Below, piece by piece: positions 301-587 of a stretch of 10,239 nucleotides of DNA. The translations under genes and the position numbers were made by a program. This stretch comes from a virus (lineage: Duplodnaviria; Heunggongvirae; Uroviricota; Caudoviricetes), in IMG/VR virus record IMGVR_UViG_2711768060_000003. One strand, given 5' to 3'. Position 1 is the stretch's first letter; every line of letters starts with the position of its first letter. The notes beneath the pieces were generated by a model that worked only from the letters and a program-made list of their open reading frames with translations, did not search any database and was not told where the DNA came from.

Positions 301-587
301 CAGGTATTACAGCAGTTCTTCGGTGATGGGCTGCTGTAATGCAGGTGTTAGAGTGTGTGTAAATGATGATTGCTCCCATTTTCACGGGTCCTTTCCAGAA
401 CCTGAAACACCGGGGGGATGCGGACGCGCAGAAATCGCCAAATTTTTGCATTTTCATTCGTCATCATCATCTTGTTAACTACATGATATTTATTGTTAAT
501 TTATTTCTTCTATGTCGAAATTGGTGTTTTTTTATTCGACAACATAAAACTCGTCGTGACCTTGGTTTTTTATGTGTCTGGTGAATT
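301..587. other. Non-coding AT-rich region upstream of terS; candidate DNA packaging (cos-like) or regulatory region
   Basis: 287 bp without a convincing ORF (the 73-aa ORF 363-584 is low complexity and AT-rich). Contains a GC-rich island (about 408-432) and a 7-bp inverted repeat TGTCGAA (513-519) / TTCGACA (535-541). In lambda-type phages cos lies immediately upstream of Nu1. Confidence 0.3.

Follow-up and report, generated by a model that had tools for sequence, protein, structure and literature searches.

A predicted lambda-type cos site upstream of a DUF1441-type small terminase gene in a lambda-like prophage sequence

The region from about 358 to 546 of the virus record IMGVR_UViG_2711768060_000003 (the window, i.e. 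the whole stretch of 10,239 nucleotides that was analysed) is very probably a cos site of the lambda type with all its parts, belonging to a lambda-like prophage with Gifsy/mEp213-type packaging. This identification is supported by the homology of every subsite, by conserved spacing, by concerted variation of the R elements and by the families of the terminase genes; the nick positions and the binding of TerS and IHF are predictions from the sequence. A cos or packaging site upstream of terS had already been proposed in a sequence-only reading of the window and is now supported, since no gaps are needed to align the interval with the cos sites of lambda, cdtI, LLS and yong2. The alignment with related cos regions suggested there was carried out and places cosQ, the nicks and a third R copy. 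The extent given at that time (301-587) holds for the conserved cos module at about 358-546 but not for 301-357, which lies outside cos; leftward of about 358 the similarity to close relatives is lost. The features are as follows (a slash marks a nick).

1-300: open reading frame of 99 codons, common to the phages phiP27 and cdtI
between this frame and terS (588): intergenic stretch of 287 nt
358-385, plus strand: conserved block upstream of cosQ, AATGATGATTGCTCCCATTTTCAC, from the alignment to lambda, cdtI and SerU-LTIIb
386-392, plus strand: cosQ heptamer GGGTCCT, the same in lambda, cdtI, LLS, yong2, CP-1639, VT1-Sakai and 30 or more prophages
408-431, plus strand: cosN region (GC island) with the conserved left flank CACCG.GGG and right flank AC.CGC
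415-426, plus strand: predicted 12-nt 5' cohesive end GGGATGCGGACG, with nicks 414/415 in the top and 426/427 in the bottom strand, by homology
427-452, plus strand: I2-like AT-rich spacer CGCAGAAATCGCCAAATTTTTGCATT, aligning with CGCGGRAAACGGCTAGTTTTT in relatives and with lambda I2
457-465, plus strand: putative R3, TTCGTCATC, a TTCGWCAWM match within a conserved (CAT)n block at 453-470
476-488, plus strand: IHF-like (I1-like) site TAACTACATGATA, one mismatch to YAANNNNTTGATW
511-519, minus strand: putative R2, TTCGACATA, a TTCGWCAWM match holding the left inverted-repeat arm TGTCGAA (513-519)
535-543, plus strand: putative R1, TTCGACAAC, a TTCGWCAWM match holding the right inverted-repeat arm TTCGACA (535-541)
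588-1085, plus strand: terS, small terminase of the DUF1441 type, 165 codons (Pfam PF07278, 6e-44)
1085-3202, plus strand: terL, large terminase of the gpA family (GpA_ATPase PF05876, 1e-78; GpA_nuclease PF20454, 1e-88)

The N-terminal helix-turn-helix (HTH) sequence of TerS is LNISQVAALSGLHRQTVSERL. Its HTH_30 match comprises residues 10-40 with an E value of 4e-5, which is below the Pfam cut-off, and the residues H22, R23, Q24 and T25 show no variation across the alignment of the DUF1441 TerS family. The portal protein encoded downstream belongs to the lambda family (PF05136, 6e-89), and a single open reading frame of 746 codons (4744-6984) combines a ClpP protease domain with a major capsid domain, in agreement with the fused protease-coat gene of Gifsy-2-type heads as cited in PMC12315714. 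A near-identity search of the interval in a phage collection and in complete genomes of E. coli returned just the upstream open reading frame and the 93 % identical prophage A19; the 10.2-kb stretch itself is absent from both of these collections.

Two further elements of the intergenic stretch deserve mention. An ATG open reading frame of 73 codons on the plus strand (363-584) crosses cosQ, cosN and cosB and has no Pfam match; similar frames carry the annotation 'NU1-like protein' in SerU-LTIIb and 'hypothetical protein' in PhiR55_1, and all of them are probably spurious over-calls. Just past the stop codon of the frame 1-300, outside the conserved cos module, lies a hairpin at 304-342 (-22.9 kcal/mol, z -5.95) with the extended stem ATTACAGCAG/CTGCTGTAAT and without a U-run, which may be a transcript-end or RNA-stability element. 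It is kept at the equivalent position in cdtI and in the IMG/VR locus L127, with the stem shifted (CAGCCC/GGGCTG).

The cosQ heptamer, the packaging-termination signal in lambda (PMC4669245), is separated from the first overhang base by 29 nt, counted from its own first base; this distance is also 29 nt in cdtI and LLS and 30 nt in lambda. Upstream of it, the block at 358-385 corresponds to GATGATAATCATTATCACTTTAC in lambda. The prophage A19 and the IMG/VR loci L089 and L122 are alignable only from about 358-362 rightward, and the block is therefore taken as the left edge of a mosaic cos module. About 25 nt upstream of cosQ (362-385 here) are conserved in all lambda-like cos sites examined, and the left mosaic boundary lies at this block; in lambda (L014) it reads GATGATAATCATTATCAC at 48448-48472, of which the present sequence is a degenerate copy. 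Among the loci compared, which include L016, the version of L039 (AAATGATAATCATTATCATT) looks like a Fur box. Natural variation of cosQ has been described as 'not apparent' (PMC4669245); at the cosQ position GGGTCCT is replaced by AGGTACTC in L011 (Gifsy-2), L012 (Fels-1), L015, L016, L023, L032, L033, L039, L041, L042 and L053-L068, with Pasteurellaceae prophages among these loci.

A GC-rich island in AT-rich surroundings with T-tracts was one of the original observations and is found again: CACCGGGGGGATGCGGACGCGCAG occupies 408-431, 156-180 nt ahead of the terS ATG (588), and the GC fraction is 0.60 in 381-440 and 0.23 in 441-540. Because the interval aligns ungapped to known cos sites, the island is seen to contain cosN and its flanks. 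In the MAFFT alignment of 361-495 with lambda, cdtI, LLS and yong2, which is gap-free from cosQ through cosN, the lambda overhang and the starts of the cdtI and LLS records align on 415, and the break of the yong2 record aligns between 426 and 427, its start being at the column of 427. The lambda record (NC_001416) ends in ACGGGTCCTTTCCGGTGATCCGACAGGTTACG and starts with GGGCGGCGACCTCGCGGG. In the LLS record, which starts with GGGCGGCGCGCT and ends in GGGTCCTCCCGGCAGGGTGTCCTGCCACG, the start bears the annotation of a 12-nt 5' extended cohesive site; the cos of LLS/mEp213, GGGCGGCGCGCT, is itself inferred (PMC12315714). The ends of the cdtI record (start GGGCGGGAGCGT/CGCGG, end GGGTCCTTCCGGTGGGGTGGCCTGCCACG) and of the record of Hafnia phage yong2 (end CACGGGTCCTTTCTGAGTTTTGAAACACCGAGGGGGCAGCGACA, start CGCGGGAAAC) are sequence-record boundaries.

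Distant and protein-level searches for phages with the same kind of TerS returned mEp460, phi458, PhiR55_1, mEp043/mEp213, LLS, yong2, CP-1639, VT1-Sakai, Gifsy-2, Fels-1 and cdtI, and a scan of IMG/VR with a cosQ-to-CACCG pattern gave 48 loci. Many of these loci share the same left half and contain the I2 string CGCTATTTATGAAAATTTTC, identical to that of lambda. When the 10 nt of lambda are counted back from this string, the right nick falls at GACG/CGCA, i.e. at the same position as 426/427. In none of the 48 loci does the pattern match lie at a locus end (the nearest is 148 nt away, in L100), several of these ends being the stored extent and not a contig end. Two loci, L086 and L100, have the canonical GGGCGG in the 415 register. 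A rule for cosN is quoted in PMC9303873 and PMC4669245, with CG before the nick, GGGC as overhang positions 1-4 and CG past the overhang. The present site, GG/GGGA...ACG/CG, fits this rule at -1, at 1-3 and at +13/+14, and departs from it at -2 (G vs C) and at 4 (A vs C). These departures are common to the 52 sequences of what we call the 'ACACCG' subfamily, in which the base at -2 is G or A and not the canonical C. The exact nick positions 414/415 and 426/427 are thus probable, though less firmly predicted than the site as a whole.

A cos site with another register, in which the overhang would be 413-424 (GGGGGATGCGGA) or a 14-nt stretch 413-426 with CG on both sides, is quite unlikely. In its favour, the left flank CCACG of cdtI, LLS and lambda has a similar counterpart here in CACCG (408-412), and both nicks would have CG next to them, in accordance with the published rule (PMC4669245); moreover, overhang length can differ, as a lambda-like phage with a 9-nt overhang demonstrates (PMC9303873). 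However, the alignment is ungapped, cosQ is 29 nt from the nick for 415 but 27 nt for 413, where relatives have 29-31 nt, and the canonical left half occurs at 415 in L086 (CG/GGGCGG) and in L100. The right nick is set at 426/427 by the yong2 break and the I2 anchor, which excludes 413-424; in that register the +2 base of the bottom strand would moreover be hypervariable. The overhang 413-424, a first guess from the rule that CG precedes and follows the overhang, was dropped on account of the yong2 break, the I2 anchor and L086/L100.

To the right of cosN an I2-like spacer (for I2 see PMC4856287) leads to the putative cosB. Its layout agrees with the definition in PMC9026076: three predicted R copies, R2 being inverted, and an IHF-like site between R3 and R2. 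Directly downstream lies the terS gene with its N-terminal HTH. R3 is proposed as the primary TerS binding site. The consensus TTCGWCAWM has four matches in the 10.2 kb (0.81 expected), three of them within 87 nt in the orientation plus, minus, plus, a count that is illustrative only because the consensus was derived post hoc from the three sites scored. The IHF consensus is not enriched in the 10.2-kb stretch (5 matches vs 7.25 expected); this rules out that the IHF-like match is statistically special, and the site at 476-488 is retained on positional homology only. A perfect IHF consensus is found at +90 to +92 from cosQ in phi458, cdtI, CP-1639, L020-22, L026, L029-31, L038 and L051. Trinucleotides are repeated in the R3 block: (CAT)4 at 453-470 here, (CAC)3 in other lineages, (GGC)3 in cdtI and (CAG)3 in L050/L051, whose TerS recognition helix is different.

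The perfect 7-bp inverted repeat described earlier, TGTCGAA (513-519) and TTCGACA (535-541) with 15 nt between the arms, is present as stated, and of the two roles suggested for it, a terminase site or an IHF-associated site, the former agrees with its place as the R2/R1 pair of the predicted cosB; the IHF-like site lies elsewhere, at 476-488. By itself the repeat is within chance: perfect 7-bp arms with a loop of 3-30 nt occurred at least once in 39 % of 1000 dinucleotide shuffles of 301-587, so that it was discarded as a statistically special feature. An RNA hairpin was likewise ruled out by weak folding (-6.1 kcal/mol, z -1.1). In the prophage A19 both arms are altered (TGTCGGA and TTCATCA), and therefore the perfect inverted repeat itself is not conserved. 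Its weight derives from conservation in relatives rather than from statistics within the stretch.

This conservation was followed in a scan with one genome per species, which gave 66 loci with related terS genes; spacing was compared in 46 non-redundant cos regions with a DUF1441 TerS carrying the HRQT helix. Distances from the start of cosQ are as follows.

R3 block CATCATCATC: +74 to +78, here +76
TTGAT core of the IHF-like site: +90 to +92, here +90
R2, RTGTCGAW: +126 to +129, here +127
R1, TTCRNCA: +147 to +150 in 41/46, here +149

The block CATCATCATCAT stands at +74 to +78 in nearly all of the 46 relatives, and the looser R1 motif [TC]TC[AG]NCA is found at +134 to +152 in every one of them (46/46). 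The best-conserved block of cosB is RTGTCGAW, with an exact TGTCGA in 40/46, 21-22 nt ahead of R1. Altogether the offsets of R3, the IHF-like site, R2 and R1 from cosQ are about +75, +91, +128 and +149, within about 2 bp, whereas the terS ATG lies anywhere from 143 to 259 nt away from cosQ, a variation of about 115. Since the offsets are fixed to cosQ while the ATG moves, the blocks are positioned by cosN and not by the gene start, which fits packaging better than transcription.

The three R copies also vary in concert between lineages. In Gifsy-2 they read CAGCACTGAAA, TTCGACACTGAA (inverted) and TTCGACACTGAA; in L050/L051 all three contain GTGCAGC, and this change accompanies a TerS helix NRN(M/L)V in place of HRQTV. 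A natural recombinant, L122 (IMGVR_UViG_3300011709_000009), is 95 % identical to the present DNA at cosN and 97-100 % identical from 758 on, after about codon 57 of terS, but only 42-78 % identical over 438-717, which comprises cosB and roughly the first 45 terS codons. The breakdown of similarity begins at about R3 (457-465). This hybrid pattern implies that cosB and the DNA-binding end of TerS move as one specificity cassette. One and the same cosQ-cosN module is followed by seven or more different cassettes in SerU-LTIIb (L085) and L086-L133; among these are DUF1441, Nu1-like TerS variants and the types 'ATQTEVARHL' and 'MAYGEEMACLL'. Behind its cos, L097 has a gene for an HTH protein of 146 aa, only 129 nt from cosQ; this protein could be a redirecting protein like Rpp of satellites (PICI).

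It might be asked whether the interval is instead a transcriptional control region (promoter, operator or terminator) for terS or the late genes, since the operon is directly preceded by AT-rich intergenic DNA in which there are T-tracts and an inverted repeat. This is highly improbable: the count of promoter-like sites equals the shuffle expectation (1 vs 1.0) and the lone site is on the minus strand, terminator-like sites were not found, Rfam gave no match at E<=1 on 200-700, the inverted repeat folds weakly as RNA, and the blocks hold their distance to cosQ when the ATG shifts. A true cos site could nevertheless be a decayed relic which no longer works, in a prophage that is defective or packaged by a helper. 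Cryptic members are frequent among the prophages of this family, the overhang is non-canonical, and A19, a close relative, has a different R2 and R1. Still, such decay is rather unlikely. The terS, terL, portal and protease-capsid open reading frames are all full length; the IMG/VR locus L107, with 99.5 % identity over 1-7772, is identical at every base of the cos region (361-640), and further close copies exist in L127 (near-identical) and L089. In addition, the subsites and spacings all agree with the family consensus and the invariant nick-flanking bases are intact. Headful (pac) packaging is disfavoured, because TerL is of the gpA type and not of the P22/Sf6/T4 type and the records of relatives have fixed ends at the homologous position.

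Within the predicted cohesive end the bases are unequally conserved. The 'ACACCG' cosN subfamily comprises 52 distinct sequences, including L086-L133, A19, SerU-LTIIb and yong2. Invariant among them are 408-412, 414-416, 425 and 427-429, and 424 is A in 51/52, while 417-423 (overhang positions 3-9) are hypervariable, with 29 distinct 12-mers in the 52 sequences. Natural cosN variation has reportedly been surveyed by Vahanian et al. in 2017 (Virology 509:140). In the lambda pattern quoted in PMC9303873 and PMC4669245, the pair of bases flanking each nick is conserved, as are the first 4-6 overhang bases, and positions 7-12 vary; by contrast, in the 'ACACCG' subfamily positions 3-9 vary and 10-11 are fixed. 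One speculative explanation, which we consider doubtful, is that the terminase reads just the nick-adjacent bases and that the core 417-423 is free to vary or selected to diversify, perhaps as an identity tag. If this were true, the diversity of the core could limit end-joining and co-packaging among co-resident prophages and satellites that have the same cosQ-cosN and different cosB and TerS.

A mechanism can be proposed by analogy with lambda. TerS would bind through its DUF1441 HTH to R3 (457-465), the inverted R2 (511-519) and R1 (535-543) of cosB, and IHF may bend the DNA at 476-488 and so bring R3 and R2 together. The gpA-type TerL, anchored by TerS, would then nick cosN at 414/415 in the top and at 426/427 in the bottom strand, leaving the 12-nt 5' overhang GGGATGCGGACG, and packaging would proceed rightward. 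At the next cos on the concatemer, cosQ (386-392) together with cosN would stop packaging. Every subsite has a described counterpart, and such a site is expected for a lambdoid prophage. From the predicted cos follow the left end of the virion chromosome, the packaging direction and a testable 12-nt end sequence. Beyond this, the comparative set reveals that the cosB of DUF1441-type small terminases is very regularly built; to our knowledge there is no biochemical study of DNA recognition by these proteins. The natural swaps of cosB with the TerS N-terminus and the hypervariable core of the sticky end are leads for the study of packaging specificity and of hijacking by satellites.

Lambda itself is one of the closest known systems. 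The cosQ heptamer is identical and lies 29 nt here, 30 nt in lambda, from the nick; both sites have the conserved G-1/G1/G2 and C13/G14/C15 next to the nicks, an AT-rich I2-like spacer, R in three copies with the order plus, minus, plus, and an IHF-like site between R3 and R2; TerL belongs to the gpA family, and terS starts about 175 nt past the left end here and 190 nt past it in lambda. There are also differences. The predicted cohesive end GGGATGCGGACG agrees with GGGCGGCGACCT of lambda at 7/12 positions, position 4 being among the mismatches, and the base at -2 differs too. The R core is TTCGWCAWM here and of the CGTTTCC type in lambda, and R3 occupies bp 43-51, counted from the left end, against bp 50-65 in lambda. 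TerS is a DUF1441 protein here and Nu1 in lambda; BLASTP of TerS against lambda Nu1 found no similarity, hhalign gave a collinear but weak match with 28 % probability, and a sequence search of the PDB with TerS gave no informative match. The site is likely to work like the cosB of lambda yet stands outside the Nu1 (PF07471-type) specificity group of lambda, 21 and phi80: TerS is without BLASTP similarity to Nu1, the profile match is weak and the R core is different.

Another close system is the group of Gifsy-1/Gifsy-2, mEp213/LLS, cdtI and VT1-Sakai. Gifsy-1 is counted with the lambda-like phages having 12-nt 5' ends (PMC4669245, PMC9026076, PMC4856287), and its cosB has the order R3-I1-R2-R1 (Feiss and colleagues, PMC9026076), which with an inverted R2 is also that of lambda, phi80 and 21 (PMC9026076, section 1.3; PMC4669245). 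TerS proteins of the group are of the same family (43-79 % identity), mostly with the HRQT helix (HRDT in cdtI), and cosB layout, spacing and the head type with a ClpP-capsid fusion (PMC12315714) are the same. The present site differs from CCACG/GGGCGG of the group by its 'ACACCG' left flank and non-canonical overhang, by about 45 extra nt between R1 and the ATG, and by the perfect 7-bp inverted repeat of R1 and R2, which most relatives do not have. With yong2 and the rest of the 'ACACCG' subfamily (SerU-LTIIb and 48 IMG/VR contigs) it shares cosQ-cosN, including the invariant CACCG, GGG and AC.CGC, in an ungapped alignment, and yong2 has in addition a DUF1441 TerS and matching cosB blocks. 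Within this subfamily the overhang core at positions 3-9 differs in almost every lineage, and many members, such as SerU-LTIIb and L096, have the same cosN joined to Nu1-type or other cosB/TerS cassettes.
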